Shown: piece after piece, positions 1 to 40,325 of the stretch
Position numbering within the stretch: position 1 is the stretch's first letter
Layout of the letters: every line of letters begins with the position of its first letter
NCBI GenBank assembly: GCA_002269645.1
Contig: NIVC01001166.1
Span: 62,001 to 126,000, forward strand
DNA length: 64,000 bases
Direction: 5' to 3'
Source: Macrostomum lignano
Lineage: Eukaryota
Position numbers and translations under genes: made by a program
The notes under the pieces: generated by a model
What the model saw: only the letters and a program-made list of their open reading frames with translations
What the model was told of the DNA's origin: nothing
Database searches by the model: none

Positions 1-437
1 AAACGCCCAGGTGCAACAGACGCGTAAATAATGTCACACCGACTAAAGAGTAAATATTGTCTAACCCGCAGGTGCATAAAAATTTTAAACAAAAGCGGTT
101 CGGGGAAATCCCAAAAGGGAGGTTTTAGCCGCCCGTTTTCGCCACCGCCGCCGCCGCCCTAACCCTCTTATAGGTACAATTGCGTTGAAAGTATTTCGAG
201 TCATTAGGTTGTAATGACCCTCCATATTTTAGGTGGGTGGACTCGAGCCCGGGGCCAGCCCATTTCAGTTTTTTGGGCCGGCCCCTCTGCCAATTTCCTC
301 CCTAGGAGCGAGCTATCAGAATTGGTCTTTTAACCCCCGTGTATACACACATAGAGGCCCCCAGCTAGCGCCCATTCTAACCTACCCAGTGTACAGTGTT
401 GGGTTCCCCAAACCGCGTACAAAGAGAAATACCCTTA

Positions 438-849
438 TCAGTCAATCTCCATACGCTCCCTCAGGGCTGTCTCGTACGCGGCCTCTTCCTCCACGCTCTC
501 GAAGCAGTAGTCGGATGACTGGCAATGTGGAAATTATAACAGTCAATGTAGATAGAATATATGCAAGGTATATGATTAGATGAGTTGTGTATATAATGTA
601 ATATCTTACCAAATCTAAATCGTCCTCCAGCCGCCACAGACGTAGAGACGCTGTATAGCGCACCAACGAAAGGTGCTCCTCCCAGTTGGAGGGCCATGCG
701 GCGGGCTCATCCCACGCAGTTGGCCGTGCTCCCGGACCGGCCAGGTACGCCTCCGAGTCGGGGGCATACGAATTGCGCCCCATCAACCAGTCCTGGTGCA
801 GAGTCTCAGCCTCCAGCACCTCCCGTAGGCCGGCACCCCTCGCAACCAA
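438..849 (-). CDS. Small acidic/Trp-rich orphan protein, spliced (exons ~849 or ATG 783..610 and 518..438)
   Basis: The ORF reaches TTG|GTAAGA (donor 609). An AT-rich intron ends gccag| at 519. The in-frame second exon reads SSDYCFESVEEEAAYETALRERMEID* (TGA 440-438). Start codon uncertain. Confidence 0.55.
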
Positions 850-888
850 AGTATCAAGAACCCGATTAAAGGCTCTGACAAAGGTGGC

Positions 889-1455
889 TTAGGAAGGCAG
901 CCCGCCTGGGTGGCGAGACCTCAACCAGTCAATGTCCCCGCGGAAAAATGAGGCCACAATGCGGGGAAAGCGCTCACGAACCACGGCGATCTCCTCAGAC
1001 ATATCCTCGTCCTCGTCGTCGTCGAAGAGAAGGAGCGTAGTGGCTGATGATATTGAGGCCCGGTGGGAGGTAGTTGAAGCAGCAGCAGAGACGGGCGTAG
1101 TAGAGGCGGCAGCAGCAGAGACGGGCGCAGCAGAGGCAGGGCCGGTTGTGGTCAGCTCCTCAACAGAGACGTCAAAGAGGGCGGCTGAGGCGGTAGTCAA
1201 ATCGGAGGCAGTAGCAGCAGGGGCACCGTTCACAACCCCGCCGATAGCCAGCAGCGGGAGGTCAAAAACTTCAGACTCGGTGTCGCTATCATAGGACATA
1301 GCCCAAGCTAGATATTGATCAGCCTCCCAATTATCACTTCCGTTGTTTTCAGTGCCTAGGGGAACTATGTGTTCTGGGATATCCCCGTCGAGGCTGGTTA
1401 ACTCTTCAGTCGGGCGATTATTATCCCAGAGGTTGGATAGAGCTCGGCGGGACAT
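889..1455 (-). CDS. Acidic, Ala/Thr-rich low-complexity orphan protein (188 aa) of the element
   Basis: ATG-initiated 188-aa ORF with its own upstream TATATAA (1533-1527). No recognisable family motif. Confidence 0.6.
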   Translation of the reverse strand: MSRRALSNLWDNNRPTEELTSLDGDIPEHIVPLGTENNGSDNWEADQYLAWAMSYDSDTESEVFDLPLLAIGGVVNGAPAATASDLTTASAALFDVSVEELTTTGPASAAPVSAAAASTTPVSAAASTTSHRASISSATTLLLFDDDEDEDMSEEIAVVRERFPRIVASFFRGDIDWLRSRHPGGLPS

Positions 1456-1526
1456 GCTAGAATCAACAGAGAGTAAAGTATTAGAGCTGAGATAGGGTTT
1501 GACTCTCTGGAGAGGGGAAACACTAA

Positions 1527-1563
1527 TTATATAGACGGATCGAGTGAGGCGGTGTGAGCCAAT
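1527..1563 (-). promoter_or_regulatory. TATA box plus CCAAT element upstream of ORF 889-1455
   Basis: TATATAA on the minus strand at 1533-1527, ~70 nt before the ATG; CCAAT at 1559-1563. Confidence 0.45.
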
Positions 1564-1569
1564 AGGAAA

Positions 1570-2103
1570 CTAGCAGTCCCAACCCTCGTTAAACAGATTT
1601 TCCCAGGGTGGAGATTGGTAGGGTTTGAGACCCACGAGCTGAAGAACATCCACCTCAGTCCCTGCTACCGGAGGCGTGTCTGTCTTGACTCGCTTGGCTG
1701 GAGGGGGTGCCTCAGGTGCCGGCTTGAAGAGCTTGTCCAAACGGGAGGCAAACATCCTGCGCCACAGTTCAGGCGTGAATTCGATCGTGTAGCGCCAATT
1801 AAACTTTGGGTCCTGATTGAGCCAATTGCGCAGCAAACGGATCCTCCCTCGCGAAGCTTCAACTGCCTTGAAATTGCCCAACAGGACCCGCTTGTTCACG
1901 TGAAGGCGGGCAGCAGCCTCCAGGTCAGGGCGCGCAGCTTCGAGCTTCTTCCACTCTGGCTCGCTCAAGTAGATTGCAGGGAAGCCGTCCTTCCACACTC
2001 CGGCCTCGTTGGTGTAGAGACGCCGAATTTCAATCAAGTTGTGTTCAGTTTCAAATGTGGGCTTCCGCGCCACAAAGTTTTCGTATAGAGAGATAGAAGA
2101 CAT
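1570..2103 (-). CDS. Tandem PC4-like ssDNA-binding protein (177 aa) with NLS-like PPAKRVK
   Basis: IEIRRLYTNEAGVWKDGFPAIYLSEPEWKKL follows the PC4 pattern (IDIRxY..G...PGKKGISL...W..L). A second diverged copy reads IRLLRNWLNQDPKFNWRYTIEFTPELWRRM. Confidence 0.7.
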   Translation of the reverse strand: MSSISLYENFVARKPTFETEHNLIEIRRLYTNEAGVWKDGFPAIYLSEPEWKKLEAARPDLEAAARLHVNKRVLLGNFKAVEASRGRIRLLRNWLNQDPKFNWRYTIEFTPELWRRMFASRLDKLFKPAPEAPPPAKRVKTDTPPVAGTEVDVLQLVGLKPYQSPPWENLFNEGWDC

Positions 2104-2349
2104 GATTTAGCAGCAGCAGCAGCAGAGAGCTCTCTAACAGCCGTGCAGCGCCTTATATACCCCCGGATGGAGGGTGGGGTGGGTGGTGATTTTGGGGGTG
2201 ATTTTTGATGATTTTGGTTGGTTTTTGGCGATTTATCCAATAACAGGCGAGCTGAGCAGATTTTTTAGTATATATACAGACCCCCAGAGCCAGGGTAGAT
2301 AGATAATCCTTCTCTCTCCGCTCGCTCTCTCACGCTCTCTGTTTGCAAA
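2104..2349. promoter_or_regulatory. Bidirectional promoter between PC4-like gene and pPolB
   Basis: Minus-strand TATATAA at 2159-2153, plus-strand TATATATA at 2269-2276 and CCAAT at 2237-2241, all between divergent ATGs at 2103 and 2350. Confidence 0.55.
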
Positions 2350-5300
2350 ATGGCTAAACGCAGCGCCACCGCAACTGCTTTTCTGGCTGACAAGAGGCAA
2401 CGTCTTTATGGTAAGTTTTAATTAATTTCTGTCTAGACTGTAGTTGCTAGGGTGGGGGTAGGGGCTGAGCAGCAGCAGCAGCTGCAGGGTCTGTGGGACC
2501 GCAGAGTAAACAACAAAGACTGCTGCGACAGCTGCAGGGGTCTAGACTGGAGTTGCTAGGGTGGGGTGCTGCGGCAGGGTCTGAACAGAGAGTTGCAGGG
2601 GAGGGCTAGACAAGTTTCAGCCGGGTGTGTGCTGATAAGAAATTGCTGCTAGGGGGGTGTTGTCCAGACAGGCTGCAGCTGGGGTGCAAATTGCTGCGAC
2701 AGAGAGTTGCAGGGGTGAGTAAACAAAGACTGGGGTGGGGTGTTGTCTAGACAGGGAGGGGTGTGCTGATAAGAAATTGCTGCAAAAACAGACAGTTGCT
2801 AGGGTGCTGCGGCAGATAAGAAATTGCTGCAGAATCGTTGGGGCAGGCTAGACAAGTTACAGCCAGGTGGGGGCAGAGAGTTGCTGGGACAGACTGGGGC
2901 TGCAGATAGGGCGCTACCCAGACAGGCTGCAGCTGGGGTGCAAATTGCTGCGACAGAGAGTTGCAGGGGTGAGTAAACAAAGACTGCTGCGACAGGCTGC
3001 AGCGGGGGTGCAGATAAGAAATTGCAGAGAGTTGCTGCGGGGACAGCAGAGTAAACTCTGTTAAGAAATTGCTGGGGCTAGGGCGGGGAAACACGCTGGG
3101 GCAGGAAAATGACAGATTCTTCTGGTTTTTTATCTCCTTGTGTTTTTTCAGACGCGTTTGTCCCGCCAACACAGCCGGAATCTGTTACCGGACCGGGTGA
3201 GTTATCCCGCCCCCCATTTCCCACACAGACCCGGGCTGACTCACACTCCCCCATTCCCCCATGCAGGTTTTACGGCCCGGCTGGATAATCAGCGTGACCT
3301 GCCCAAGTTTAGGGCAAAGGGTGTCGAGTATGTGGTGCGTATTACCAACACCGAAGATTTGCGGGAGGTGTTTGCCGACATGCTCGAAGTTTTCAAGCAA
3401 GATTTGGCCGGCGAGGATTTCATGGCTGCGAAATTCGAGAGCGACAATATGCTCAAAGCAGCCCATACTCCCCCGGTGCGTGCAGCCCGCATGACGGCTG
3501 AATTGTTGTTTAAGCACATTGACAAGATTGTGCAGTCGGATGCCACTGTATTGTCAGGCAACTTTTCTGTCCGTCTGCTAAAGGCCTGGGTGCCTCGAGG
3601 TGGATGTGCTCTCGAGAACAAGCATCTAGAAGAGCGGCATGCCTTCTCCAGGCACTATGTCCGCATCACCAACTCGGACAAGAGATGCCTGCTGCGCGCT
3701 CTGGTCGTGGCCTGCGCCTACCTGCAATTCGTGGCCAAGTCCATCACCAAGCAGGTGTGGCACACAATCAAGGCCAATTCGCCCACGCAGACTAAGCTGG
3801 TGGCTGAGCTACAAATCGAAGCGGGTCTCTACTCGGTAAGTTTCTAGTATTTTTCCGATAAGAATTTTTACACAGTATCATGGAATACTAAAATTTTCTG
3901 ATAAGAATTTTTACGATAAGGAATACTAAAAGAATTTTTACACAGTATCATGGAGTACTAAAAGATATATTTTCTGATAAGATTTTTACACAGTATCATG
4001 GAATACTAAAATTTTCTGATAAGAAATTTTACGATAAGGAATACTAAAAGAAATATTTTACCCTCCACACAGACTCTTCAAACCGTCTCGCAGGCTGGTC
4101 CTTTCGGCGTGGATGCACTGCCCGAAGCGATCCGTGCCCTGAACCGGCTGCATCCGGGGCGCGATTTTGGTGTACGCGTGTACCGCGCAGAGGAGGCCAA
4201 CAGGTGCATCTTCAACCTGCCTGGCACCGAGATTCTGCACCTACACCTGGTCGAGCAGCACTTTAATGTGGTTACCAAGCTGCCTGCGTTTTTCGGCAGC
4301 CACCACTACTGCCCCAAGTGCGAGATGGCCTATGATAGCGAACCCGCCAAGCACAAGTGCGCTGATGCCTGCAGTACATGCAAGACTCCGGGCTCCAACT
4401 GTAAGGCAAACCGCGCATATGTAAGATGCCATGATTGCGGGCTAAATTGCTATAATGCTCAGTGCCTAGAAAATCACAAGCGCAAGAATAAGGCCGGCAG
4501 ATCGCGCTGTGATTCGGTCCACGTTTGCGGCACGTGTGGCTATCTAGAAGAACTAAAAGTAGGCCAGCCCCCTGAGCATCAGTGTGGTTATGCCAAGTGC
4601 CCAGTCTGCAAGCAGTACGACGAAACTGCCACCCACGAGTGCTTTGTCACCCCGCCAAAAGCCAAAGAGTCTAGCGCCCCGTATGTTTACAGTACTATGA
4701 TTTCGAGACGTACTTGGACTCTGGCAAGCAGCACCGGGTACACTTGGTTACGGCTGCCACCTCCTGCGAGGCGTGTCCCAAACTCTTCCCCAGGCCCCGC
4801 TGCAGCGCGTGCGGGGGACTACACAGCTCAGCCAATTGCATTGCGGGACGCAATCTGGCGCTGGATTTCACGAGCTGTGTCTCGCACAATGACTGTGCCT
4901 GTGGGATGCGAGAGTTTGTATCTGTCGGGCCGCACTCTATCGATGCATTTTACTGCTGGCTGACTAGTGTGTTCAAGCAGGGGGCAATTGCTATTGCGCA
5001 CAATGGCTCTGCGTATGACGCATTCCTCCTGCTCGGCGCCCTACTCAACGGACTGGCCAAGAAGAAGCCGCAAGTGATCTTCCAGAACAGCCGCCTAATG
5101 TATATGAAGTGCGACAAGATCACCTTCAAGGACAGCCTCAATTTCATCCCTATTGGTCTGGCGCAATTCCCAAAGGCGCTTGGTTTGGGCACCCAACTGA
5201 CCAAAGGAGATTTCCCGCACGTGTTTAACCAGCCTCAAAATTGGGGGTACGTCGGTCCCTACTGCTCAATTGATATGTACGGCGGGAAGAAGAATAAGCA

Positions 5301-7461
5301 GCATGACTCCATCGCCGACTGGCTGGCCAAGCAGGAGGGACAGGTGTTTAATTTCAATAAGGAGTACCTGGACTATTGCCTGCAGGACACGTTAATTTTG
5401 CGGGAAGGCTGCCTGAAATATGCCCGCCTGATTAAGGACATTTGCGGACTGGACGCATTTGTCCAATCCAACACCATTGCGGGCTTGGCCATGTCGGTAT
5501 TCACCACCAAGTTTATGGAGCCCAACACTCTTGGGGTGATTTCCCGCCGATCGGATGTACAGTCGCACAAGGCGCGGTGCTGGCTGGCACATTTAAATGC
5601 AACCGAGTTTGGCGGCCGGTTGAGGACAGCCGATTCTGGCGGCGAGGCTTTCGCCATGGGCCGTAAGGTCGACGGCTTCGACCCAGAGACCAGGACAGTG
5701 CTGCAGTTTCATGGCTGTTTCTTCCATGGCTGTCCCAAGTGCTTCCCCAACGGCGACGTGCTGCACCCGCTCAAGAACCAGCCAATGCGGGCAATTTATG
5801 AAGAGACCGAGCGCTTCACCCGGCTGCTCTCCACTGCATACAATGTGCGTGTTCTGTGGGAGCACGACTATCAGGACGAGGGAGCGCCAGTCCAGCAGCC
5901 TATTCGCCTGGAGGAAGCCCTGTTTGGCGGCCGTACCGAGGCTTTTGTCCCGCACGCCGAGGCCACCGAGACTGTAGAGCTGCGCTATCGGGATGTGGTA
6001 AGTTTGTACACTTGTACACACAGTTGACATGCGTTTGAGTTTATCTTATCCTCTAATTCTCTATTATCCTTATACTTATCCCCTAGGTGTCGCTCTACCC
6101 GACTGTCAACAAGTTTGACAAGTACCCTGTCGGGCACCCTGTACACCACCCCGAGCCTCATCTACTGGATGAGCTGCAGCTGGCCCGGTATTTTGGCATC
6201 GCCGAGGTGTCAATTCTGCCGCCAACCAATCTCCACATCCCGCTACTGCCCGCCAAGATTAACAAGAAGTTGGTTTTCGGCCTCTGCCGCGTCTGCATGG
6301 AGACCCAGTGCAGCAGCGAGTGTACACACACTGACGCTGAGAGAATGCTCCGCGGCACGTGGTCGACCCCAGAGCTCCACAAAGCCCTGCAGTTGGGTTA
6401 CAAGCTGCAGTCAGTTCATGCCCTGGCCTATTGGACCGAGACTCGCACGGGTCTGTTTGCAGATTATGTAAACACTTTTTTGAAGCTCAAAGCCGAGTCT
6501 AGCGGTTCGCCGGGGATGGCTGAGGACGCCAAGGCTGCCTACATGGCCAGCTTTTTCGAGCGCGAAGGCGTCCGGCTGGAAAAGGTGGAGGAGAATCCTG
6601 GCTTGCGCTTTGTGGCCAAGATTTTTCTAAACTCGTAAGTTTTTTCTACTTGCAGTGGGGGCCGTGTTTTTCTACTTACAAAAAAAAATTTATTTTTCCC
6701 TGCAGGCTCTGGGGCAAATTCTGCCAGCGCGACGACCTGACCTCCACAGAGATTGTGGACAGCTACGAGGCGTGGCTGCAGCGCCTGACCGACCCCTCGA
6801 TCAAGGTCAAGTCGTGCGAGCCAATTGGGGAGAGCTTCATGATGCTCGAGTACAAGCCCCGATTTGGCGGTGCTGGCGAGCGGGCGTTCAAGTACGCTAA
6901 TGTACCTATTGGCGTTTTCACCACCTCCCACGCCCGGCTGCGACTCTACGAGGCTCTGGAGGGCCTAGGAACCCGAGTCATTTACGCCGATACCGATTCG
7001 TAAGTAATTTTTTCACTGTCTCTGTCTCTCTTTCTCCCCTTAACACTTTATTCTCCTCCTTCTCCCAGGGTTGTATACCGCTGCTCCCCGGGCGAGTACG
7101 AGCCTCCGGGCGGTTCGAGTTTGGGGCAGTGGACTGACGAGGTACCTGCTGGCTGCCGCATGGTACAGTTCACCACGGGAGGCCCCAAGCTCTACCGGTA
7201 CTTAGTGGAGAAGCCCGACGGGTCGCTGTACTCGGTGCTCAAGTGCAAGGGCATCAGAGTCACCCCGAGATTTCCGAGCGCGAGGACGAGCTGCAGGAAA
7301 TTCTGCGTCACGGCGGGACTGTACGCCTGCCCCAGGCCCAGTTCAGGCGCGATAAGGCTAGCTGTACAATCCGGACCCTCGAGATGGACAAGACTTTCCA
7401 GCGCGTAATGACTAAGAGGGTGTATGGGGCTGCTAGCCGCCCGTATGGCTTTCGGGAGTGA
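2350..7461 (+). CDS. polB: Protein-primed family B DNA polymerase (pPolB), 7 exons: 2350-2410, 3152-3196, 3267-3835, 4073-5997, 6087-6634, 6706-6999, 7069-7461; two +1 frame corrections needed at CCCC runs 4677-4680 and 7263-7266; ~1278 aa
   Basis: Motifs: ExoI YYDFET, ExoII IAHNGSAYD, FKDSLNFIP, KGDFPH, ExoIII YCLQD, FGGRTE, motif A DV|VSLYP, motif B KIFLNS|LWGKF, motif C YADTDS|V, GGPKLY, KCKGI and C-terminal KR...PYGF. All six introns are GT(A/G)AGT...YAG with matching phases. Exons 1-2 are less certain than the rest. Confidence 0.93.
2411..3151 (+). repeat. pPolB intron 1 filled with degenerate gctgc/ctagacag repeats, including a 69-bp duplication (2664-2732 = 2918-2986)
   Basis: Direct reading of the sequence. 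Confidence 0.75.
3850..4052 (+). repeat. AT-rich ~80-bp duplication inside pPolB intron 3
   Basis: gataagaatttttacacagtatcatggaatactaaaattttctgataagaa...gaatactaaaagaa occurs at ~3852-3933 and ~3971-4052. Confidence 0.8.
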
Positions 7462-7929
7462 GTGAAAGATAAGGATCTGTCTTTTTACGCCTCCCTGCCT
7501 GGGATTCCCCTATGTGCCCACTTGGGATCCCTTGACTCGTGGGGATGAAAATGGTTTTACACCCGCATTGTACTTGGGCCTCGCAACACACGGGGGGATC
7601 CCTCAACTTGGAGAGCTACCCTCTGGGGATCCACTAAAGCCCCGTGGGAGGTGCTGTAAAGTTTGACTGGAATTCTCTTTGTATGCGGTCTGTTACTCTA
7701 CCTCCACTGTACATTGGGGCATCATTTGACACCCCGGAGCGCACTGTGCATTGGGGGGCGGGATTCCTTCATCATTTGACACCCGGGAGCGCACTGTACT
7801 TGGGATCCCCTTGAAAAAACCTTATTTGGGGCTTGGGGAGGAATGGAATTTCTCTCTGCCCGCACTGTACTGAGGATCCCCCGGCCCTGGCTCTGGGGGC
7901 GTGTCTCGAATATCCTGGGCTAGATATTT

Positions 7930-8350
7930 TACTTTGCACCTACATTATATGCTTAATTTTGCATACATATGTTGTATTATACTTAACTTCCAGTGTGTGT
8001 ATTTTATCCTATGCACTGAAATTTGTACCTGCGGGTTATTATGCAAAAATGTATCGTTTAAAATGCGCCTACATTATATGCTATGTAATTTTCTTGTATT
8101 ATACTCAATTTGCACCTACATTGTGTGTATGTATGCACCTACATAATTGGAATCTAGAGTGTGTGCAATATACTGTGTGTATTTCCACCTATGTAGCGCC
8201 TACAGTACCTGCTTTGTCTATTTCTGCCCATGCACCTACATTGTGTGTTTTTGCTGCTCATATGCTCCAATATGTATTATGCGTCATTATTCACACCTAC
8301 CAATATGTTTTATCTACTTTTTATGTAAATATACGCAATTTCATCTACTA
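7930..8350 (+). repeat. AT-rich subterminal tract with iterated TGCACCTAC motifs
   Basis: Multiple tgcacctaca/ccacctat/acacctac copies. Confidence 0.6.
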
Positions 8351-8384
8351 TAAGTAGTTTTCACTAGCCTAATATCGCTGACTA

Positions 8385-8730
8385 GATATCTTACATATCG
8401 GGAGAGTGGTAGAGTGTACATATCGCGAGAGTGTACACTCGGGGTGCCTGCGGCTCGGTAGAGTGTACACTCGGGGTGCCTGCGGCTCGGTAGAGTGTAC
8501 ACTCGGGGTGCCTGCGGCATGGGCGCCTGCAGCATGGGCGCCTGCTGCTCTGGAGGGCATACATATCGGGAGGGTGGGCATACATATCGGGGTACATATC
8601 GGGAGGGTGGGCATACATATCGGGAGGGAGGGCATACATATCGGGGTACATATCGGGAGGGTGCGCCTGCGGCATGGGCGCCTAATTGGCGCCTGGATAG
8701 CGCCACGCGCCTGCGGCGCGCGCGCCAGCC
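8385..8730 (+). repeat. GC-rich terminal repeats with palindromes
   Basis: gtagagtgtacactcggggtgcctgcggc occurs about 3 times and contains the perfect 12-bp palindrome GAGTGTACACTC. tacatatcgggaggg occurs about 5 times; there are also GGCGCC and GCGCGCGC clusters. Confidence 0.75.
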
Positions 8731-8799
8731 AATGAGAGGCGAGGAGGGTTGACACCCACCCCACCTCCAAAAAGGGCGGATCTACCAGTCCTTAGTAGT

Positions 8800-9670
8800 C
8801 ATGGCAGATATCAGTCAGTAGACAGGGCAGATATCAGTCAGCAGACATGGCAGATATCAGCCAGTAGACAGGGCAGATATCAGCCAGTAGACAGGGCAGA
8901 TATCAGTCAGTAGACAGGGCAGATATCAGCCAGTAGACAGGGCAGATATCAGCCAGTAGACATGGCAGATATCAGCCAGTAGACAGGGCAGATATCAGCC
9001 AGTAGACATGGCAGATATCAGCCAGTAGACATGGCAGATGTCAGTCAGTAGACAGGGCAGATATCAGTCAGCAGACAGGGCAGATATCAGCCAGTAGACA
9101 TGGCAGATATCAGCCAGTAGACAGGGCAGATATCAGCCAGTAGACAGGGCAGATATCAGCCAGTAGACATGGCAGATATCAGCCAGTAGACAGGGCAGAT
9201 GTCAGTCAGTAGACAGGGCAGATATCAGTCAGCAGACAGGGCAGATATCAGCCAGTAGACATGGCAGATATCAGTCAGTAGACAGGGCAGATATCAGTCA
9301 GTAGACAGGGCAGATATCAGCCAGTAGACAGGGCAGATATCAGTCAGCAGACAGGGCAGATATCAGCCAGTAGACATGGCAGATATCAGCCAGTAGACAG
9401 GGCAGATATCAGCCAGTAGACAGGGCAGATATCAGCCAGTAGACATGGCAGATATCAGCCAGTAGACAGGGCAGATATCAGCCAGTAGACAGGGCAGATA
9501 TCAGCCAGTAGACATGGCAGATATCAGCCAGTAGACAGGGCAGATGTCAGTCAGTAGACAGGGCAGATATCAGCCAGTAGACAGGGCAGATATCAGCCAG
9601 CAGACAGGGCAGATATCAGCCAGCAGACAGGGCAGATATCAGTCAGCAGACAGGGCAGATATCAGTCAGC
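8800..9670 (+). repeat. 23-bp tandem repeat (acagggcagatatcagccagtag) in TCHP intron
   Basis: About 37 near-identical units. Confidence 0.95.
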
Positions 9671-9710: not shown

Positions 9711-12341
9711 CATGAACGCATTCCGGGCCGACAAGGACAAAGAGGCCAGGCAGCGCAAGCTGGAGCAGCGGCGCCTGCGGCTGGCTCGCCTGCTGGAGGC
9801 TGAACGGAAATACTTCCAGGTGAGATGGCGCTTCTTACTGGGCCTACTTCCAGTTGCACCTAACAGGTTTCAATCTAGATTCTGTATGTATAGACGCTCT
9901 TGAATAGCATACATCTTTTATAGGTCATTCTCTAATTGAATATTCTTTGTGACCTTTCTTGACATCCGACCGATCCTGTAATGCATTCTCTTTGATTCTC
10001 TTCTTTCTCTTGGGGGCTTGCGCTTGCTTGAATTTGGCGAAAGCATTTTACTATCATGTTCCTCTGTTCAAATACTGGTTCTGGTTCTGGTTCTGGAATG
10101 AGTGTGTCAATATCTGAGGGTGTCAGTATCTGAGGGTGTCAGTATCTGGGAGTGCCAGTATCTGAGGGTGTCAGTATCTGAGGGTGTCAGTATCTGAGGG
10201 TGTCAGTATCTGAGGGTGCCAGTATCTGAGGGTGTCAGTATCTGAGGGTGTCAGTATCTGAGGGTGTCAGTATCTGGGAGTGCCAGTATCTGAGGGTGTC
10301 AGTATCTGGGAGTGCCAGTATCTGAGGGTGTCAGTATCTGAGGGTGTCAGTATCTGAGGATGTCAGTATCCGAGGGTGTCAGTATCTGGGAGTGCCAGTA
10401 TCTGAGGGTGTCAGTATCTGAGGGTGTCAGTATCTGAGGGTGTCAGTATCTGAGGGTGTCAGTATCTGAGGGTGTCAGTATCTGAGGGTGTCAGTATCTG
10501 AGGGTGTCAGTATCTGAGGGTGTCAGTATCTGAGGGTGTCAGTATCTGAGGGTGTCAGTATCTGGGAGTGCCAGTATCTGAGGATGTCAGTATCTGAGGG
10601 TGTCAGTATCTGGGAGTGCCAGTATCTGAGGGTGTCAGTATCTGAGGGTGTCAGTATCTGAGGGTGTCAGTATCTGGGAGTGCCAGTATCTGAGGGTGTC
10701 AGTATCTGAGGGTGTCAGTATCTGAGGGTGTCAGTATCTGGGAGTGCCAGTATCTGAGGGTGTCAGTATCTGGGAGTGCCAGTATCTGAGGGTGTCAGTA
10801 TCTGAGAGTGTCAGTATCTGAAGGTGTCGGTATCTGAAGGTTTCAGTATCTGAGGATGTCAGTATCTGAGGATGTCAGTATCTGAGGATGTCAGTATCTG
10901 AGGATGTCAGTATCTGAGGATGTCAGTATCTGAGGATGTCAGTATCTGAGGATGTCATTATCTGAAGGTGTCAGTATCTGAGGGTGTCAGTATCTGGGAG
11001 TGCCAGTATCTCAGAGTTTCAGTATCTGAGGATGTCAGTATCTGAGGACGTCAGTATCTGAGACTGTCAGCATCTAATGTTGTCGAACCCGCGGCCCCGC
11101 AGGCGGAGGTGGAGACGCTGAGCCTGGAGAACTCTGGGCGGCTGGACACCATGCGAGATCGAATCGACTCGCTGCGCAGCGCCCGAGAGCAGGTCCGCTC
11201 GGAGGAAGCCGAGCGGCTGCAGTACGAGCACTTCAGGCAGAACAATCCCCGGCTGAGGGAGGTGGCCGCCGAGCTCGCCCGCGAGGAGGCGGTGGAAGGC
11301 TGGTCCGACCAGGTGGCGGAGCGCCAAGAGGTCGCCGCCGCCGAGCGTCGCGAGTCGGACGCGTGGGCGGAGGCGGGCCGCCGGCAGGCTCTGGAAGCGG
11401 AGCTGCGCGCCCGAACCGAGGAGGCGGACCGACTCGAGGCCGAGCTGAAGCGCCGGCGCGAGCTCGAGGCCCAGATGGCGGCAATCCGTCGCCGGGCGGC
11501 CGAACAGGAACGGCTGGCGGCCGAGGAGCGGCGGCTGGCGGAGGAGCTGGACCGCGTGGCCGCGCTGGACAGCCGGCGCCGGGCGGCCGAGGAGCAGCGG
11601 CGGAAATCCGAGCACGGCCGGGCGCTGCTCCGGCAGCACAAGTCCGCCCTGGCCAGGAAGTCGCAGCAGGTGCAGGCCGACCTGCGCGAAGATTTGAAGC
11701 TGCTGGCCGCGCTTGAGGAGCGCGAGGCCGACGAGCGGCAGGCGGCCACGGAGCGGCGCGACCGGCAGCGCCAGGAGGCGGTCGGGGCGCGCCAGCTGGT
11801 GGAGGAGCAGCTGCGCCGGGAGCGCGCCAGGGAGGCCGAGCTCGATGCGCTGTTCGCCGACGAGGCCGCGCGAGAATGGGACCGGCGCCAGGCCGAGTGG
11901 CAGCGCGAGGCGGAGGCGCGGGCGCGCCTGCTATCGGAGGTGCTGGCCGAGCGGGAGAGCCAAGTGGAGCGGCAGCTGCAGGCGGCCAGGCAGGCCCAGG
12001 CGGAGAATCTCCGCGAGCGCGAGGAGCTGCTCCGCGACGTCGAGGAGGCGGCTGCGGCCACGGCGCGGGCGGAGGCGGATGAGGCGGAGGCGGCAGCGGC
12101 CAGGCGGGCGGAGCTGGACGAGCAGCGGCGGGAGCGCGCGGCAGTGGAGGCGGCGGAGCGGCTGCGCCGGCAGGCCGAGCTGAGCGAGGAGCGGCAAGCC
12201 AAGGAGGCCTACGAGCGCCTGCTGGCTGATGAGGCCGAGAGGCTGCGCGGCGAACGGGCAACGGCGCGGCAGCAGGCGGCGTTGAGCGCCAGGCAGCCGC
12301 CGACTGCGCGCCAGATTGTGCGCGGAGAGCGGCGCTTCTGA
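9711..12341 (+). CDS. TCHP: Trichoplein keratin filament-binding / ciliary coiled-coil protein, 3' exons 9711-9819 and 11103-12341; 5' exon(s) not in window
   Basis: SMNAFRADKDKEARQRKLEQRRLRLARLL, LQYEHFRQNNPRLREV and ERAREAELDALFADEAAREWDRRQAEWQREAEARARLLSEVL match recalled trichoplein segments. Splice sites attcag|, cag|GTGAGA and ccgcag| are in phase. Confidence 0.85.
10110..11065 (+). repeat. 16-bp tandem repeat (gtcagtatctgagggt) in TCHP intron
   Basis: Direct reading of the sequence. Confidence 0.95.
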
Positions 12342-23905: not shown

Positions 23906-24547
23906 TATCAGCTTGGTTGCAAGTTCAGGCGATGAGGACTAAAATCCCAAATGAAGGGAGATTAAGAGTCACAAACTGTCTGACCAACCACTCAGGTGAC
24001 GCTTTTCCCAAGGACTCACGTGAGAGAGAGGGAGAGACGGCAGGATGACTGACTGGATTAATGGGGAGACATAGATGAAGCTGCTGCAGACTCTGGCGGT
24101 GGTTAAAGAGATTACAATGAAGCGCGAGCGACACTTGCAGATGAGCGAGTGGCGGCAGAGAGACCTGCAGGACCGGCGACTCCAACTCACCCCCGCCTGC
24201 TCACTGTTGAATAAATGATGAGGACAAAACAGCACTGGATTCTGGCGCGGCTTTTGAAATCCGGGATGCGGCAAGAGCGAGCGAGAGCGAAGCGTCAGGG
24301 ACCTCCTGCTGAGAGGCAATTGAAACAATGAACAAAAGACACAACCTGTGCGTCCCCGACTGAGGCCTCCTGCTGCTTCTCAGCTGCTTGAGTAAGCACA
24401 CCCCTCCTACTCATCCTGGCTCTTCTCCGCCTGTCTCTCCTGCTCACTGCATGCTCACCCTTGGCCTGCCCGTCACGGAAGCAGCTCTCGATCGATGAGG
24501 CTGAGACGATGGAGAGAATTTTCTTGCTTGACCAAAATAGATTTGGC

Positions 24548-25020
<473 letters not shown>

Positions 25021-25519
25021 CACGCTGGCACGCTGCACCGCCAGATCAAAGTTTACGCTTACTGGCCACAAATCTTGTACCAATTGAAATGCGATTCGGT
25101 TTAGTTAACAACATCCGTTCGCTTCAGTTTCATTCGAATTATTTCGGTCTACCAAATTCTAAGAAAACAAGTTCGATTTAGCAGCAAATCGCGGATTTCT
25201 GAAGCAGGGAGGGGACGGGGCGCGCAAAACATCCGACTGCATACCAATTTGTGCGCTAATTCTTGACTGGAAAGCTATTCCTGCAGACGCCTTGGTGCCA
25301 AGCCACCCCCCCCCGTCCGCAACTCCTGTTTGGACACTCGCACCTGTGTTTATCCAGCTTATCAAGATCTGCCCGGAACAGAGGGACGGCAGCTGGCAGA
25401 CAAAATTTGGCACAGTGAGGCAGTTTAATACTGCAACTTTTGCGTTTTCAGTCATTCAATTTGCTTTGAATTTTTGCACTAATTGAGAGCCAAAGCAATC
25501 AAGAAATCCGAGTACCTGC

Positions 25520-26808
25520 ATGGCGCTGAGACCATCTCGCCGGCTGATCAGTCTGGCGCTCATCTTCATGGTTGTAGCAGTGCCGGCGACCATCTCTCAA
25601 AGCACCGGGAGTCCAGCTGCGGCGAGTAAGTGGGAGGCAGTGGCTCTCTTTGGATCATTAACCTCTGTGTGCAACACCCTGCCCATGCCCTGCCTTTCCC
25701 AATCCTCTCTTCTCCTCTCCCACCTCCCTCTCCCACCTCCTGCTCCCATCTCCCTCTCCCACCTCCCTCTCTCATCTCTCTCTCCTATCACCCTCTCCCG
25801 TCTCCCTCTCCCATCTCCTGCTCCCATCTCTCTCTCCCATCTCCCTCTCTCATCTCCCTCTCCCATCTCCTGCTCCCATCTCCCTCTCCCATCTCCCTCT
25901 CCCATCTCCCTCACCCATCTCCCTCTCCCATCTCCCTCTCCCATCTCCTGCTCCATCTCCCTCTCCCATCTCCCTCTCCCATCTCCCTCTCCCATCTCCC
26001 TCTCCCATCTCCCTCTCCCATCACCCTCTCCCACCTCCCTCTCCCATCTCCCATCTCCCATCTCCCATCTCCTATCTCCCCCAATCTCCTGCTCCCATCT
26101 CCCTCTCCCTTCTCCCTCTCTCTCCCCTTTGTGACTGAATTCAGCTTTATAATCAGTGCAACTTAAAACAACCAGAACAATATCAATAACAACAGCAGAA
26201 ACAACAGAACCACCATCAAGATCAGAACAAATATCGAAAAAAGAATCATCAACAATAATAATCGCAACAGCAGCAACAACAACAACACCAACAACATCAG
26301 CAACAACACCACCACTAACAACAACAACAGCAACAAAAACAACAACAACAATAACAACGCCAACGACGCCAACAACAACAACAGCGTCATCAACAATAAA
26401 AACAACAACAACAACGTCATCAACAACAAAAACAACAACGCCAACAACAACAACAACACCACCACCAACAACAACAAAAACAAAAACAATATCAACAACA
26501 GCACCAGCAACAACAACAATAACAACGCCAACAACGCCAACAACAACAACAGCGTCATCAACAATAAAAACAACAACGCCAACAACAACAACAACGTCAT
26601 CAACAACAAAAACAACAACGCCAACAACAACAACAACAACACCACCACCACCAACAACAACAACGCCAACAACAACGCCAACGCCAACAAAAACAGCAAC
26701 AACACCACCAGCAACAACAACAACAACGCCAACAACGCCAACAACAACGCCAACAACAGCACCAACAACAACAACAACAACAACACCAACAACAAAAACA
26801 ACAACAGC

Positions 26809-26840
<32 letters not shown>

Positions 26841-28291
26841 CACCAACAGAAACAATAAAATCAGCTGCATCATCTTCCGGTACGAAACCGTCAAATTTCT
26901 CGCACGGCTCAACTGTCGCCGAATCGACCGCCACAGCGGCGCCAATTATTTCAGCGTCGGCAACAACCTCGTCGATGAGAACCTCAACAGCACCAAAATC
27001 AACCACGACAGCCCCAGTGACGGCAGCTTCGGCGACGAGTCCTACGACGAAAACCCTAACAGCCAAAACCTCAACGATGATGACAACCTCGACAGCGGCG
27101 AGTACTGCTACGCCAACAACAACAACATCAACAACGAAGCCCCCACCGCAGCCAAAGGCAGAAAGCAACACTGTCGTCTACAAGGTGGTGATCTGCTTCC
27201 TCCTGCTGCTCCTCTGCGTCTTTGCCGGCTTCATGCTCTGCCAGCAGCTGAAGGGCAACAACGAATTGGGCGGCAGCTGCGATGAGCAAGACGTTGAAGC
27301 TGGCGAGTGCAGCGGCGGCGAGGGCGATGCGGAGGAGGGCCATGGCGAGGGCGATGGCGAGGCAGACCGACAAGACGGAGAAAGCAACGCTAAAGGCGAG
27401 GTGGCTAGCGGTGAGGTGAGAGCGGCACCAACGGAGTCAGAGGGTCAAAGCGCCGCTGAAAAGCCGCTGGTGATCGACGGCCGGTCCGCCGGGTCCTTAG
27501 AGGTCATCCACGAGGATCAGGAGGAGCCGGACGCTGAAGAAGAAGCTTTCGAGCTGATGGCGGTCAATCAGAGGCAGCAGCTGACACCGGAAGAGGAGCG
27601 GAAGAGAGCCAAGGAGGTCAAGAAGCAGGCGGAGAGGACGCGAAAGGCGGCAGCCAAGGCGAGAAAGCTGGCCGAGAAGGCGGCCAAGAAGGCGGAGAAG
27701 GAGGCCAAGAAGGCGGAGACGAAAGTCAAGTCTTCAGCAGCTCAGGCGGACCCTGGAACTGATGAAGCAGCGAACGCAGATTTGAATGAAAACAAGGAAG
27801 CAGGGAGCTCAGAAGAAGCTGGAGCTGATGATGCGGCGAAAACTATCGGGGCTGATAATTCAGAGCAAGATAAGGCCAAGACTGACGATTCAAAGAAACC
27901 GGAAGTGGCCAAAACTGACGATTCTAAGAAACCGGAAGCAGCCAAGACTGACGATTCTAAGAAACCGGAAGTGGCCAAAACTGACGATTCTAAGAAACCG
28001 GAAGCAGCCAAGACTGACGATTCTAAGAAACCGGAAGCAGCCAAGACTGACGATACAAAGAAACCGGAAGTGGCCAAAACTGACGATTCTAAGAAACCGG
28101 AAGCAGCCAAAACTGACGAAGCCAAGAAACCGGAAGCAGCCAAGACTGACGAAGCCAAGAAACTCGAAGCAGCCAAAACTGACGAAGCCAAGAAACCGGA
28201 AGCAGCCAAGACTGACAAAGCCAAGAAACTAGATGTCAAAGGAAGTTCGAGTGAAACCATAGAAGCTGAAACAGAAAAGACTGCTCTATGA
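25520..28291 (+). CDS. Type I transmembrane mucin-like protein (~746 aa); exons 25520-25625 and 26157-28291
   Basis: Signal peptide MALRPSRRLISLALIFMVVAVPA. Phase-1 intron GTAAGT...aatcag filled with (ccctctcccatct)n. Thr/Pro-rich ectodomain, TM VVYKVVICFLLLLLCVFAGFMLC, acidic and Lys-rich tail with ~11 KTDDSKKPEAA repeats. Confidence 0.8.
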
Positions 28292-28499
28292 TTTAGGCAA
28301 TTCATAAACTTGGTGATCATTTTTTCGAAACTCACCGTAGTTATAATTTCACTACTATTAGTACAGTAATCGATCTGTGTACATCTTAATTACAGTAATA
28401 GCTTGTGCTAGATTGCTCTTTATTATTAAAATTAAGAAATTATGATGCTGATGTTAGATTAGCGAAAATTTAAATCAGAACTTGTAGGGGAGCGATCAC

Positions 28500-28672
28500 A
28501 GTTCGAGTGGGTGGGATTAAAACTCGAGTGGGTGATATTAGAGTTTTAGTGGGTGAGATTAGAGTTCGAGTGGGTGAGATTAGAGTTTGTGAGTGAGATT
28601 AGAGTTCTAGTGGGTGAGATTAGAGTTCGAGTGGGTGAGATTAGAGTTCATGTGGGTGAGATCTGAGTTCCA
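28500..28672 (+). repeat. 21-bp tandem repeat (gagttcgagtgggtgagatta)
   Basis: Direct reading of the sequence. Confidence 0.85.
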
Positions 28673-28849
28673 GTATGTCTGGGTGGGTTGGGGCTTATAA
28701 GATGCGCATATGTTAAAAGTGCACTAAGTTTCTATGCATCTTAAATGACTATTTAATTAGTTAATTAACTCAAATTTTAAAGCGCAATTTTCTATTCCTT
28801 ATAGTCAAACATTTTATTTTCAAGAAAAGCAGTTAATATTGAGCTAACC

Positions 28850-29244
28850 AATTATTTATGCAGAAATCTTATATTGAATTCATCAGATTATCGATAGTCG
28901 CAAGTTTTTCCTGATCCTGTTTCTTCTCTAATGTGTTCTGGAATACTTTTCTAGCGATGCTACTCATTAGTAGCATTCGCAGTTGCATGCCCTTCATTTC
29001 ATAACTGTAATCCATAAAATTTGTTTCCTAGTAAGCAATTGTATTTTAAATGCTGTGTTGAAATTCAAATTTGCTTTATTTATTTGACTTCTTTAAACGA
29101 CATTGCTTTCCAGAACTGAGCATAAAATTAATGTTATAACACTCGTAAACAAGAATTCATATTCAAAGACATCAGCTACTCTTAGTAGTTTTGGAAAATC
29201 CTAGAAATTTGAATTATGCTTTTTTATTAATGCAAGGTTTTTTC
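28850..29244 (+). repeat. ~395-bp AT-rich dispersed repeat, copy 1
   Basis: Near-identical to 32413-32808, same orientation. Confidence 0.9.
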
Positions 29245-29344
29245 TTATTTACTCAACATCTCGGTAGTCAAATATGGTTAACTAAAGTGAACTCAAGCTA
29301 CAGAGATTTCACCAGAGAACTCTGCGATCGACGAGCATGTTTTG

Positions 29345-30746
29345 ACCATGGATCATAGATCATATAGATCATAGACCATAGATCATAGATCATAGACCAT
29401 AGACCATAGATCATAGATCATAGACCAAAGACCATAGACCATAGATCATAGACCAAAGACCATAGACCATAGATCATAGACCATAGATCATTGACCATAG
29501 ATCACAAATCATAGACCATAGACCATAGACCATAGACCAAAGACCATAGACCATAGACCATAGACCATAGACCATAGACCATAGATCATAGACCATAGAT
29601 CATAGATCATAGACCATAGACCATAGACCATAGATCATAGACCATAGACCATAGACCATAGACCATAGATCATAGACCATAGATCATAGATCATAGATCA
29701 TAGACCATAATCCATAGATCATAGACCATAGACCATAGATCATAGACCATAGACCATAGATCATAGATCATAAACCATAGACCATAGACCATAGACTATT
29801 AATCATGGACCATAGACCATAGACCATAGACCATAGACCATAGACCATAGACCATAGACCATAGACCATAGATCATAGATCATAAACCATAGACCATAGA
29901 CCATAGACTATTAATCATGGACCATAGACCATAGACCATAGACCATAGATCATAGACCATAGACCATAGATCATAGATCATAAACCATAGACCATAGACC
30001 ATAGACTATTAATCATGGACCATAGACCATAGACCATAGACCATAGACCATAGACCATAGACCATAGACCATAGATCATAGATCATAAACCATAGACCAT
30101 AGACCATAGACTATTAATCATGGACCATAGACCATAGACCATAGACCATAGACCATAGACCATAAACCATAGACTATTGATCATGGACCATAGACCATAG
30201 ACCATAGACCATAGATCATAGAGCATAGACCATAGACCATAGACTATTTATCATGGACCATAGACCATAGACCATAGACCATAGACCATAGACCATAGAC
30301 CATAGACCATAGACCATAGATCATAGACCGTAGACCATAGACCATAGACCATAGACCATAGATCATAGACCGTAGACCACAAACCATAGACCATAGACCA
30401 TAGACCATAGACCATAGACCATAGACCATAGACCATAGACCATCGACCATAGACCATAGACCATAGACCATAGACTATTGATCATGGACCATAGACCATA
30501 GACCATAGACCATAGACCATAGACCATAGACCATAGACCATAGACCATCGACCATAGACCATAGACCATAGACCATAGACCATAGACCATAGACCATAGA
30601 CCATAGACTATTGATCATGGACCATAGACCATAGACCATAGACCATAGACTATTGATCATGGACCATAGACCATAGACCATAGACCATAGACCATAGACC
30701 ATAGACCATAGACCATAGACTATTGATCATGGACCATAGACCATAG
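29345..30746 (+). repeat. (GACCATA)n 7-mer array with higher-order variants
   Basis: Direct reading of the sequence. Confidence 0.97.
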
Positions 30747-31099
30747 TTTCAAGTTCTATTCGCAATTCGGAAGTCTAGAGGATGAACTTGCGAGCTTGAG
30801 AGCTTGAAACTATCTTTAAAAATGTCAAACCAATCTTCAAATGTACTATTATTGTCAGACTTTAATAGCAAGACCCCTCGCAGAGAAAGATGCAGATCTA
30901 ACTGGGCCTTAACAACGCTAATTGTATTAACCCGCCGCTCTTTCTGCTTGGAATTTTGATTCCTGTGTTTGTCTTTCTAACTGTGTACCAAGTCTGAGTA
31001 CCCATTTCTTAATTGCAGTTGAACTTGTCAATACTCAAAGTAAAGAGAGTACTCATGCCTTCAGCAACCAATGCGACCTATTTTAGCTGATGTGCTGTG

Positions 31100-31797
31100 C
31101 TGTCTTCTGTAGTGTCTGTCTTCTGTAGTGTCTGTCTTCTGTAGTGTCTGTCTTCTGTAGTGTCTGTCTTCCGCAGTGTCTGTCTTCTGTAGTGTCTGTC
31201 TTCTGTAGTGTCTGTCTTCTGTAGTGTCTGTCTTCTGTAGTGTCTGTCTTCTGTAGTGTCTGTCTTCTGTAGTGTCTGTCTTCTGTAGTGTCTGTCTTCT
31301 GTAGTGTCTGTCTTCTGTAGTGTCTGTCTTCTGTAGTGTCTGTCTTCTGTAGTGTCTGTCTTCTGTAGTGTCTGTCTTCTGTAGTGTCTGTCTTCTGTAG
31401 TGTCTGTCTACTGTAGTGTCTGTCTTCTGTAGTGTCTGTCTTCTGTAGTGTATGTCTACTGTAGTGTCTGTCTTCTGTAGTTTCTGTCTTCTGTAGTGTC
31501 TGTCTTCTGTAGTGTCTGTCTTCTGTAGTGTCTGTCTTCTGTAGTGTCTGTCTTCTGTAGTGTCTGTCTTCTGTAGTGTCTGTCTTCTGTAGTGTCTGTC
31601 TTCTGTAGTGTCTGTCTTCTGTAGTGTCTGTCTTCTGTAGTGTCTGTCTTCTGTAGTGTCTGTCTTCTGTAGTGTCTGTCTTCTGTAGTGTCTGTCTTCT
31701 GTAGTGTCTGTCTTCTGTAGTGTCTGTCTTCTGTAGTGTCTGTCTTCTGTAGTGTCTGTCTTCTGTAGTGTCTGTCTTCTGTAGTGTCTGTCTTCTT
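31100..31797 (+). repeat. 16-bp tandem repeat (ctgtagtgtctgtctt)
   Basis: Direct reading of the sequence. Confidence 0.97.
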
Positions 31798-32412
31798 AGC
31801 ACTGCACTGGCACTGTTTTCTGTGTCTTCTGCAAAATATGGTCTCTGAGAATTGTATGACTCCCAGCAACACAGAGATTCCCTGATGCTAGCAAACAGAC
31901 ATCGTAGATGCAACTGCAGAATTGTTGACAAAGCTGGCAAGACAGACAGGGTTCCAAGTCTCATCCTTTGCTCTGGTTCAAAACAGCAATCGAGAGCGCA
32001 AACACTCGCCAAGCCTCGCCAAACATAGCCGAATAATGAGCTCCGCTTTTGTGTGTGTGCGGAGAAACTCATTGGTGCAGAGTTGCATTAGAGGTGGCCC
32101 CGCCAACAACCTTGTGCCCGCAGCACCCACCCTTTCCCTGTATTTCTACTGCCAAAGACGCTCTGACAGCTCAACTCTGCACGGCACAAAACTCGGTAGC
32201 CTCTAAAAGTCTACTTTAAAAGCTGTTGTTGTAAACAAAAAAATAATTGTATTAGTCACAGTTTGGTAAAGCTCTAAGCAGCTCATTAACGTCTGTAGTA
32301 GTTCTGGTAAGTACCTACTATCAGTTAAATTTACTAAATCTCAAGTCAATGGGACAATACTCCACTAGTGAAGCTGAATTGGGGGGGGGGGACAGCCCCA
32401 TTTAAAGATACT

Positions 32413-38148: not shown

Positions 38149-38784
38149 TGTTACTGTACTAATCTACGAATCTGCCGCTCTGCATTTCCTTGCACTCATT
38201 ACAGTCTAATTGCACACCCGTAGCCTAGCCAGACAGCTAATTTCGCATGCTAATTGCGCATTATTTTCAATTCGCACTCTCAGTGCATTTCAAGCCTGTC
38301 CGTTTCAACAGTGCCACAGGCGGCAGCTGTAAAATTAACATGCCCGCATAAACATGCTGGTTCGGGTGCGAAATCCTTAATTTGAGCATGCGCTCATTAA
38401 TTCAAAACGAAAAACACAAAAATTTCATGCGAACGTCACGTAAATGGCAAATGTGAATATGTGAATTTATTTGCACTAAGTGCTCTACTAGCAGTAAGGA
38501 AGTGACAATTTTAGAGACTTACAATAATATCATTGCAATGTAAGCATAATTCATTACAAAAAACACATTAGCGAAATAGAGACTTCTCACTTCAAAGCAA
38601 AGTCTTTTGCTTTTATTAAGCCTTTTAGAAATCAGCGAAGCCATACAGCAGGCGGCCAAGTCAGGTAAGCCTTTGAATGCTCACCTGACACCGGGACCAG
38701 TTTGATGATTTGCAAAGTCGGAGGTTGTACGTGTAACACCCTAACACCCTCCATGAGTATGACCCAGTACACAACACCCATAAA

Positions 38785-39372
38785 AACCCTGCAAGCGTAA
38801 CACCCTCCATGCATAACACCCTCCATGCATAACACCCTCCATGCATAACACCCTCTATGCATAACACCCTCCATGCATAACACCCTCCATGCATAACACC
38901 CTCTATGCATAACACCCTCCATGCATAACACCCTCCATGAATAATACCCTCCATGCATAACACCCTCCATGAATAATACCCTCCATGCATAACACCCTCT
39001 ATGCATAACACCTTCCATGCATACTGTAATACCCTCCATGCATAACACTCTCCATGCATAACACCCTCCATGCATAACACCCTCCATGCATAACACCCTC
39101 CATGCATAACACCCTCCATGCATAACACCCTCTATGCATAACACCCTCCATGAATAATACCCTCCATGCATAACACCCTCTATGCATAACACCTTCCATG
39201 CATAACACCCTTCATGCATAACACCCTCCATGCATAACACCCTCCATGCATAACACCCTCCATGCATAACACCCTCCATGAATAACACCCTCCATGCATA
39301 ACACTCTCCATGTAAAACAACCTCCATGAATAACACCCTCCATAAATAACACCCTCTATGCATAACAGCCTC
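38785..39372 (+). repeat. 16-bp array (ataacaccctccatgc)
   Basis: Direct reading; reverse complement of the array at 40050-40320. Confidence 0.95.
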
Positions 39373-40049
39373 TAAAAACGTGCAGATTCACAAAGCCCCT
39401 GCTCAGAAAGAGGGATAGTGCAATTACTGAAATTGAAAACAAGATTATTAAACGGGGGACAACGCTTTACAAAGGCATCATCAGGTTTTCAACATCCCTT
39501 CCACCCCAACTCCTCCTCAAGATGAGCGTTCAGCCGATTAAACAAAATTCGAATTGAGATGGAAATTAAAATGCAAAGCAGTGACGCTCGGGATCGGTGA
39601 CTGCAGATGCAGGTTGCCGTACCCTAATGACAAGCCCCAGTCTCCCTGAGGGCGTTCTATTGATGAATGAAGTGCATCAACACCTGACGGACGAACAGCT
39701 ATTACACAAAAAGAAAAGAAAGAACCTTTCTTCTGTCTGTCCACACCTGCGACTTTCAAATCTGCGTGATAAATATGGGCCTATTTTTGAGCAGGCCTTT
39801 CTTTCAGATTTGTTTCGCCACGATTTCCTGATGTTTTTCTGTTATCGCCTTGGCAATTTCCGTGGGCGATAATAGACTGGGGAAGAAGCTTGGGACATTT
39901 CCAGGAAAGAGGGACATACACAAATTCTGGAAATTGAAAGCTGCAAAACATTTTTCCTTGAAATGTCACCGAAGACTAAAAAGGAGACACTCGGTTTCTT
40001 GGCAAATTGAAAGGAGAGGCACTTTCACTAGGGTCTCACCATTGTTCAG

Positions 40050-40325
40050 AGGGTGTTTTGCATGGAGGGTGTTATGCATGGAAGGTGTTATGCATGGAGG
40101 GTGTTATGCATGGAGGGTGTTATGCATGGAGGGTGTTATGCATGGAGGGTGTTATGCATGGAGGGTGTTATGCATGGAGGGTGTTATGCATGGAGGGTGT
40201 TATGCATGGAAGGTGTTATGCATGGAGGGCGTTATGCATGGAGGGTGTTATGCATGGAGGGTGTTATGCATGGAGGGTGTTATGCATGGAGGGTGTTATG
40301 CATGGAGGGTGTTATGCATGTAGGC
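40050..40325 (+). repeat. 16-bp array (gcatggagggtgttat), inverted relative to 38785-39372
   Basis: Direct reading of the sequence. Confidence 0.95.

Follow-up and report, generated by a model that had tools for sequence, protein, structure and literature searches.

It has long been debated whether Polintons or Mavericks (Eupolintoviridae, adintoviruses) should be regarded as transposons or as viruses; in the usual description their core genes are intronless. Their size and hallmark genes (10.1101/2023.08.22.554363) and the definition of adintoviruses (10.1101/2024.03.25.586562; PMC8502044) have been set out. Intact vertebrate Mavericks have intronless open reading frames (ORFs), 6-bp target duplications and (AG)3 or (AGT)2 ends (PMC8097293), and nematode Mavericks have intronless core genes and cargo genes that may hold introns (10.1101/2022.07.12.499685). 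Group I introns are described in protist Polinton-like viruses (PMC12220804), and young, multi-copy introners in full-length dinoflagellate proviruses with capsid and integrase (PMC12166617). The locus described here comes from the flatworm Macrostomum lignano (assembly GCA_002269645.1, contig NIVC01001166.1), of which positions 62,001 to 126,000 of the forward strand, a stretch of 64,000 nucleotides, form the window. It contains a short transposable element, termed family A, whose protein-primed DNA polymerase (pPolB) gene is split by six introns. The host splices the transcripts of the polymerase and of a second gene, ORF3, and copies of the element insert at new sites with 6-bp duplications. 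A virus-derived element that lacks capsid and integrase genes and is still spreading bears on how such a virus becomes a stripped-down transposon, and this genome holds both states, complete intronless elements and a capsid-less, spliced, still-spreading lineage.

Family A is like Polintons in its pPolB (PF03175), its terminal inverted repeats (about 630 bp in the window copy, within the Polinton range of 100-1500 bp) and its 6-bp target duplication (range 5-8 bp). It is unlike them in spanning 8.7-9.8 kb rather than 13-25 kb, in its six polymerase introns, in ending with ACTACT..AGTAGT instead of (AGT)2..(ACT)2 or (AG)3..(CT)3, and in that no integrase, capsid or ATPase was found in it. In its working the element resembles the part of a Polinton that replicates, but it departs from the full form in its integrase and virion genes, in its size and ends, and in having introns. 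Spliceosomal-type introns within Polinton-like elements are shared with the introner-bearing eupolintoviral proviruses of dinoflagellates (PMC12166617), but those of the flatworm element are old, mutually unrelated, fixed in the lineage and shown to be spliced, in an animal host. Polymerase genes beside a terminal inverted repeat and without integrase are also described in Caenorhabditis elegans (10.1101/2024.01.15.575659), there as partial remnants at 10 loci, whereas the flatworm elements are intact with both ends, belong to expanding families, and have genes that are spliced and under selection. Eukaryotic linear plasmids and bidnaviruses likewise have fold-back derivatives and a minimal gene set around a pPolB (described domain order TP-OTU-Exo-Palm, where TP is the terminal protein; PMC11161782); unlike them, the flatworm element sits integrated in the genome, with exact ends flanked by target duplications, and uses nuclear splicing. 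The literature search returned nothing on Macrostomum Polintons or on fixed spliceosomal introns in a pPolB lineage; Repbase lay outside the search and may list such elements. In their accessible text, PMC8502044 mentions neither Macrostomum nor splicing, the reviews PMC5718144, PMC6431247 and 10.64898/2026.10.13.758929 hold no comparable case, and the Macrostomum genome paper (PMC5730564) holds none either and does not contain the word 'Maverick'.

The six introns lie where they had been predicted (Table 1). All have GT(A/G)AGT...YAG ends, with pyrimidines at 12-19 of the 20 bases upstream of the acceptor. The donor hexamer occurs eight times in 2350-7461, against a mean of 2.4 and a maximum of 10 in 500 shuffles; donor words on their own are weak evidence for introns. 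Splicing was assessed in four public runs from four studies, whose kind (RNA or DNA) is in each case a guess; no RNA label is recorded for runs X1, X2 and X9, and their RNA status rests on the spliced joints themselves. Contigs of these three RNA-like runs, from three studies, contain intron-skipping joints, those of introns 1-5 in two or three runs each and that of intron 6 in a single X9 contig that spans introns 4, 5 and 6 together. The DNA-like run X15 shows no such joint among those listed, only non-GT-AG deletions, as would be expected from DNA of sister copies. All 16 full sister copies compared retain the six introns, with one acceptor of ambiguous alignment, which means that among these sisters the joined form does not occur as a DNA variant. 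The introns are real and are spliced by the host, and the predicted intron-rich pPolB of Polinton/adintovirus type, which contrasts with the intronless core genes of described elements, is expressed. Many sites distinguish these contigs from the window copy, and the transcripts are therefore not assignable to that copy.

Table 1. Positions of the polymerase gene, its introns and the other features of the family-A element in the window, with examples of the related family P
Feature	Position	Strand	Remarks
pPolB gene	2350..7461	+	ATG at 2350, TGA ending at 7461
Intron 1	2411..3151	+	741 nt; spliced joint in runs X1, X2
Intron 2	3197..3266	+	70 nt; spliced joint in X1, X2, X9
Intron 3	3836..4072	+	237 nt, AT-rich repeats inside; joint in X1, X2
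Intron 4	5998..6086	+	89 nt, within polymerase motif A; joint in X1, X2, X9
Intron 5	6635..6705	+	71 nt, within polymerase motif B; joint in X1, X2, X9
Intron 6	7000..7068	+	69 nt, within motif C straight after DTD; joint in X9
Element, family A	1..8799	.	9,569 bp; its first 770 bp, from G000:C1166:61231, lie outside the window
6-bp target site duplication CATGGC	8800..8805	+	matched at left end
Right terminal inverted repeat	8174..8799	-	patchy match to left: 93% over 380 nt, 98% over 51 nt
PC4-like single-stranded-DNA-binding protein gene	1570..2103	-	177 aa, head to head with polymerase
Putative shared promoter region	2104..2349	.	TATA-like and CCAAT-like words, both strands; putative function
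ORF3, acidic protein, no assigned family	438..1455	-	one intron 519-609; stop at 889-891 in window copy
Family P, examples	L101-L107, L114, L128		e.g. G000:C2288:3661-12793
Family P, 4.1-kb half-length form	L109-L111		

The original prediction also held that the phases match at every junction and give a complete pPolB of about 1278 aa. This fails in the window copy, where the seven exons total 3835 nt, a length not divisible by three, and the frame is broken in exon 4 (near 4670-4700) and exon 7 (near 7250-7275); the exonuclease and polymerase motifs are present as predicted, and the broken frame had been overlooked. Colinearity with the window copy across the exon-4 break was seen in none of 16 sisters, and across the exon-7 break in two. 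The breaks are thus nearly private to the window copy, and reflect either decay or assembly errors. All seven exons are open in seven of the 17 full copies and the other ten are broken. The pooled ratio of nonsynonymous to synonymous substitution rates (dN/dS) is 0.11 (range 0.04-0.14) when the window copy is compared with its 16 sisters. Across 16 full copies, insertions and deletions number 8.6 per kb in introns versus 0.9 in exons, and substitutions are about equal between the two (19 and 21 per kb). These values show purifying selection on the polymerase.

At the protein level, PF03175 is matched by exon 4 (E 4e-15) and exon 5 (E 1e-12). Taken separately, the frames of exon 3 and all later exons align in sequence order with a profile built from 37 full-length homologs, with exon ends that abut adjacent profile columns at introns 4, 5 and 6. 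The spliced product carries motifs that we take to be those of the exonuclease and polymerase domains. Putative OTU-protease Cys and His motifs (compare PMC11161782) are in exons 3 and 4, both of which match the homolog profile, and intron 3 presumably lies between the two. By conservation, the alignment stretches at introns 4, 5 and 6 are among the highest 2.9%, 1.5% and 5.4%, and the one at intron 3, in a poorly aligned region, ranks at 61%. The chance of three of six introns falling at such conservation is about 0.003, a value computed after the pattern had been seen. For this pattern of intron gain in motifs A, B and C, descent from homing elements aimed at conserved sites and selection for a splicing-dependent switch are both possible origins.

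Outside the genome assembly, UniRef holds 99%-identical matches labelled Macrostomum lignano, and the expectation that ORF-based surveys would miss this gene is therefore only half true, automatic gene models being already deposited. The best other UniRef matches are Maverick-type polymerases at 24-36% identity, those named coming from spider, fish and lizard. A second search, for exon-sized relatives, gave nothing closer, and across both searches the best non-Macrostomum matches are at most 38% identical over long stretches. A metagenome search found 10 distant loci among 84 candidates, and none of nine candidates in viral contigs matched the spliced polymerase. The intronless state of the outside homologs was deduced from their long called proteins, and a direct check found open frames of 1284-1536 aa in three of the 10 metagenome loci. 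In a tree built by a quick method from the exon-4 region only (64 rows, three local intronless rows having been dropped as unalignable), family A and a second flatworm family, family B, form a single branch (SH-aLRT 100, length 1.1) whose sister is not resolved.

The limits of the element were placed by comparing flanks among copies. Its ends read 5'-ACTACTA...TAGTAGT-3', the 20 end pairs around family-A genes all fall in the size range given above, and each of the seven copies checked has its own distinct 6-bp duplication. The insertion target in the window is a 23-bp tandem repeat within an intron of a host TPH-domain gene. The left and right ends of the window copy belong to different terminal subtypes (window 1-8799 and L031:8431), which suggests recombination between subfamilies.

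Beside the polymerase, family A carries two genes. The assignment of the first to PC4 draws on three individually weak, concordant scores for the window gene (Pfam E 0.04, Atlas 0.87, Foldseek E 0.003). The protein model has a predicted local distance difference test score (pLDDT) of 79, its ten best PDB matches are PC4/Sub1, and the family-B homologs reach E 1e-5. The third-position bias of this gene is weak (9, 9 and 14 variable sites by codon position). The variable sites of ORF3 fall mostly at third codon positions (10, 3 and 32), and its intron is spliced in X1 and X2. No retroviral-like integrase was matched by Pfam or tblastn in the 9.6-kb element, which has no spare coding room; no capsid or packaging ATPase was matched either, ORF3 being the sole unassigned long ORF. 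Neither an adintovirus hexon nor a chromodomain-bearing rve integrase was matched in the family-A element, and a Pfam scan of the window frames, with no dedicated search, gave no adenain-like protease. In 114 other loci, tblastn with local Polinton frames as queries (E 0.01) gave no match to integrase, ATPase or capsid. The locus is accordingly not a full endogenous virus, a point that the original prediction missed, but a three-gene element in which integrase, capsid and ATPase were not found.

In the host genome, the exon-4 search gave 97 matches from the 95 of 177 candidates that were scored, at least 69 at 79% identity or more (family A) and at least 28 at 57-67% (family B), all counts being lower bounds and some sites having been assembled twice. 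Family B is about 65% identical to family A. Introns 3-6 are at the same codon positions and phases in all four family-B copies shown, and introns 1-2 match in the one copy read, while the lengths and sequences of the family-B introns are unrelated to those of family A. Positions shared between families about 35% apart in protein place the introns before the A/B split and argue against a recent introner burst. Introners occur in about 25% of dinoflagellate viral elements (PMC12166617), which gives a precedent for the idea that introner-type sequences recently entered a Polinton polymerase of ordinary type; yet this is very improbable here: in addition to the common positions, the 13 introns compared show no similarity to one another (E 0.01; no genome-wide search for intron copies was made). 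A recent introner origin is largely refuted; an ancient one may apply.

Family-B elements end in ACTACGTA..TACGTAGT, versus ACTACTA..TAGTAGT in families A and P, and have 6-bp duplications in five of six pairs, the remaining pair being unresolved in a microsatellite. One family-B copy carries both PC4-like and dUTPase genes. A dUTPase gene beside a family-B terminal repeat (L122:806-1333, + strand; G000:C1263) was not seen in the other loci examined. Three family-B end pairs of 9.0-9.4 kb enclose no listed polymerase match (G000:C657:75375-84697, C982:8088-17104 and C2205:113830-123255).

Family P consists of near-perfect palindromes, 5.7-9.3 kb long and bounded by family-A ends; in those of 8.5-9.3 kb the arms are about 99% identical. 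All 11 rows considered have a 6-bp duplication, three of these rows being one site. Pfam matched none of 64 short frames from family P and the left arm of family B, there is no codon periodicity in family P, and family P is non-coding. The palindromes are unlikely to be a read artefact, given that their flanks are not palindromic. One family-P element (L128, G000:C1944:71274-76989) sits in the integrase gene of a canonical Polinton. Another reading makes the polymerase no part of a mobile element but a domesticated host gene, multiplied by segmental duplications or by redundancy of the assembly. The gene is expressed, spliced and conserved, and some rows are one site assembled repeatedly (L109-L111), as such an origin would have it; but each copy has different flanks and a different target duplication, ten of the 17 full copies are broken, and a family-P copy has landed within the integrase gene of another Polinton. 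Domestication is thus refuted by the copy-specific target duplications, and its remaining probability is minimal.

Canonical Polintons are also present in this genome. They are 16-18 kb long and carry intronless polymerase frames of 1125-1478 aa together with rve integrase, A32 ATPase and double-jelly-roll capsid; a PC4-like gene also occurs in them. At least 151 matches to a local Polinton integrase were found. The family-A element is probably a reduced, replication-only descendant of a Polinton that is now a nuclear transposon served in trans. On this account a retroviral-type DDE integrase acting in trans, most likely that of a local Polinton, would excise and insert the element, and integration without an encoded integrase has precedent (PMC11296320). 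With its terminal-protein domain serving as primer at the (ACT)2 ends, the polymerase of the element would copy the freed linear DNA by strand displacement, and the PC4-like protein may assist by binding the displaced strand. Self-copying would give the element an advantage that keeps the polymerase gene selected, and fold-back during strand-displacement synthesis could make the head-to-head family-P palindromes, which would ride the same ends. The introns would have been gained once, before the A/B split, and would be tolerated because the element is inherited vertically and no longer passes through a compact virion. M. lignano is a laboratory flatworm open to transgenesis (PMC5730564), in which one could follow, in the living animal, how a Polinton-type element replicates by protein priming and integrates in trans.

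Several observations weigh against trans-service by a local Polinton. No helper integrase was identified in this genome analysis. The canonical ends are AGTAGT..ACTACT in both elements resolved, the complement of ACTACT..AGTAGT, and share at most about 20 nt with these ends; the ends of three other local Polinton families were looked for and not found. Three local intronless polymerases barely align to the spliced one (E 0.003-0.3), from which it follows that the spliced polymerase does not descend from these three and that the helper would be a stranger to it. The PC4-like gene is absent from most family-B copies checked and hence is not essential to all. Free linear DNA and protein-linked ends are predicted forms only, and the 244 family-A and 67 family-B end motifs have been classified in part.

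Alternatively, the element could belong as a single segment to a split system, or have arisen by deletion from an autonomous master; a partner bearing identical ACT..AGT ends would then encode the integrase, which may itself be interrupted by introns, and perhaps capsid genes. This is possible but doubtful. It would account for odd ends that are common to families A, B and P and unlike the local canonical ones, and segmented bidnaviruses have common termini (PMC8502044). The integrase search, run in six frames exon by exon, scored 150 of 2175 candidates, and the genome searches were insensitive to spliced, divergent genes: that for the A32 ATPase family returned nothing although one is present, and that for rve was swamped by retrotransposon-length frames. 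Against a partner element, no listed end pair encloses a listed integrase match on inspection. A first set of 14 end positions without polymerase is all family P, which lacks codon periodicity. Fourteen further family-A end positions without polymerase comprise nine of family P, one family-A derivative holding a mariner, one retrotransposon-like frame and three unpaired ends that match neither family. An integrase hidden in the polymerase-less end pairs was rejected for those sampled, their contents being non-coding family P or nested elements. A 381-aa frame in L127 was likewise rejected as an element gene, being a mariner transposase with its own ends; this mariner (L127:940-2225), with its own inverted ends, is nested in a 3.2-kb family-A derivative.

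Integration might also proceed without any DDE integrase, by repair or recombination that joins protein-capped linear DNA into staggered breaks, as for integrating linear plasmids. A parallel is cited in PMC11161782, where a linear plasmid of a fungus has a deletion derivative that forms a hairpin. No integrase was found in cis, and the ends are unlike those of the local integrase-bearing elements, as this route would allow. Repair-driven insertion usually leaves ragged ends. The ends here are exact to the base and the duplications uniformly 6 bp, the length reported for the Maverick integrase (PMC8097293), which makes such a route improbable. A broader departure from the reduced-Polinton account would be a separate class of self-synthesising transposon, an old virus-free lineage with a spliced pPolB, ACT..AGT ends, an integrase not recognised as such, palindromic fold-back satellites, introns in all three catalytic motifs and a splicing switch; the integrase would possibly reside on a separate intron-rich partner element. 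This is considered unlikely. If it were true, the polymerase would be active only where and when the host splices its message.

Further features were recorded in the host DNA and the canonical elements. The host TPH-domain gene, presumably trichoplein-like, occupies window positions 9712-12341 (+ strand) with the element in its first intron, and is also seen at L031:1675-1866. Long short-period tandem arrays and inverted arrays, of a sort typical for the DNA of this host, lie at window positions 24500-32000 and 38780-40340. Two canonical Polintons carry a TATA-binding-protein gene (PF00352, E 4e-23 and 1e-19) at L116:902-1465 (- strand, G000:C393) and L126:5668-6306, and an endonuclease VII domain lies within the polymerase of canonical elements here. 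An integrase frame at L123:604-1803 (+ strand, G000:C2506) has a weak phospholipase A2-like match in its N-terminal part.

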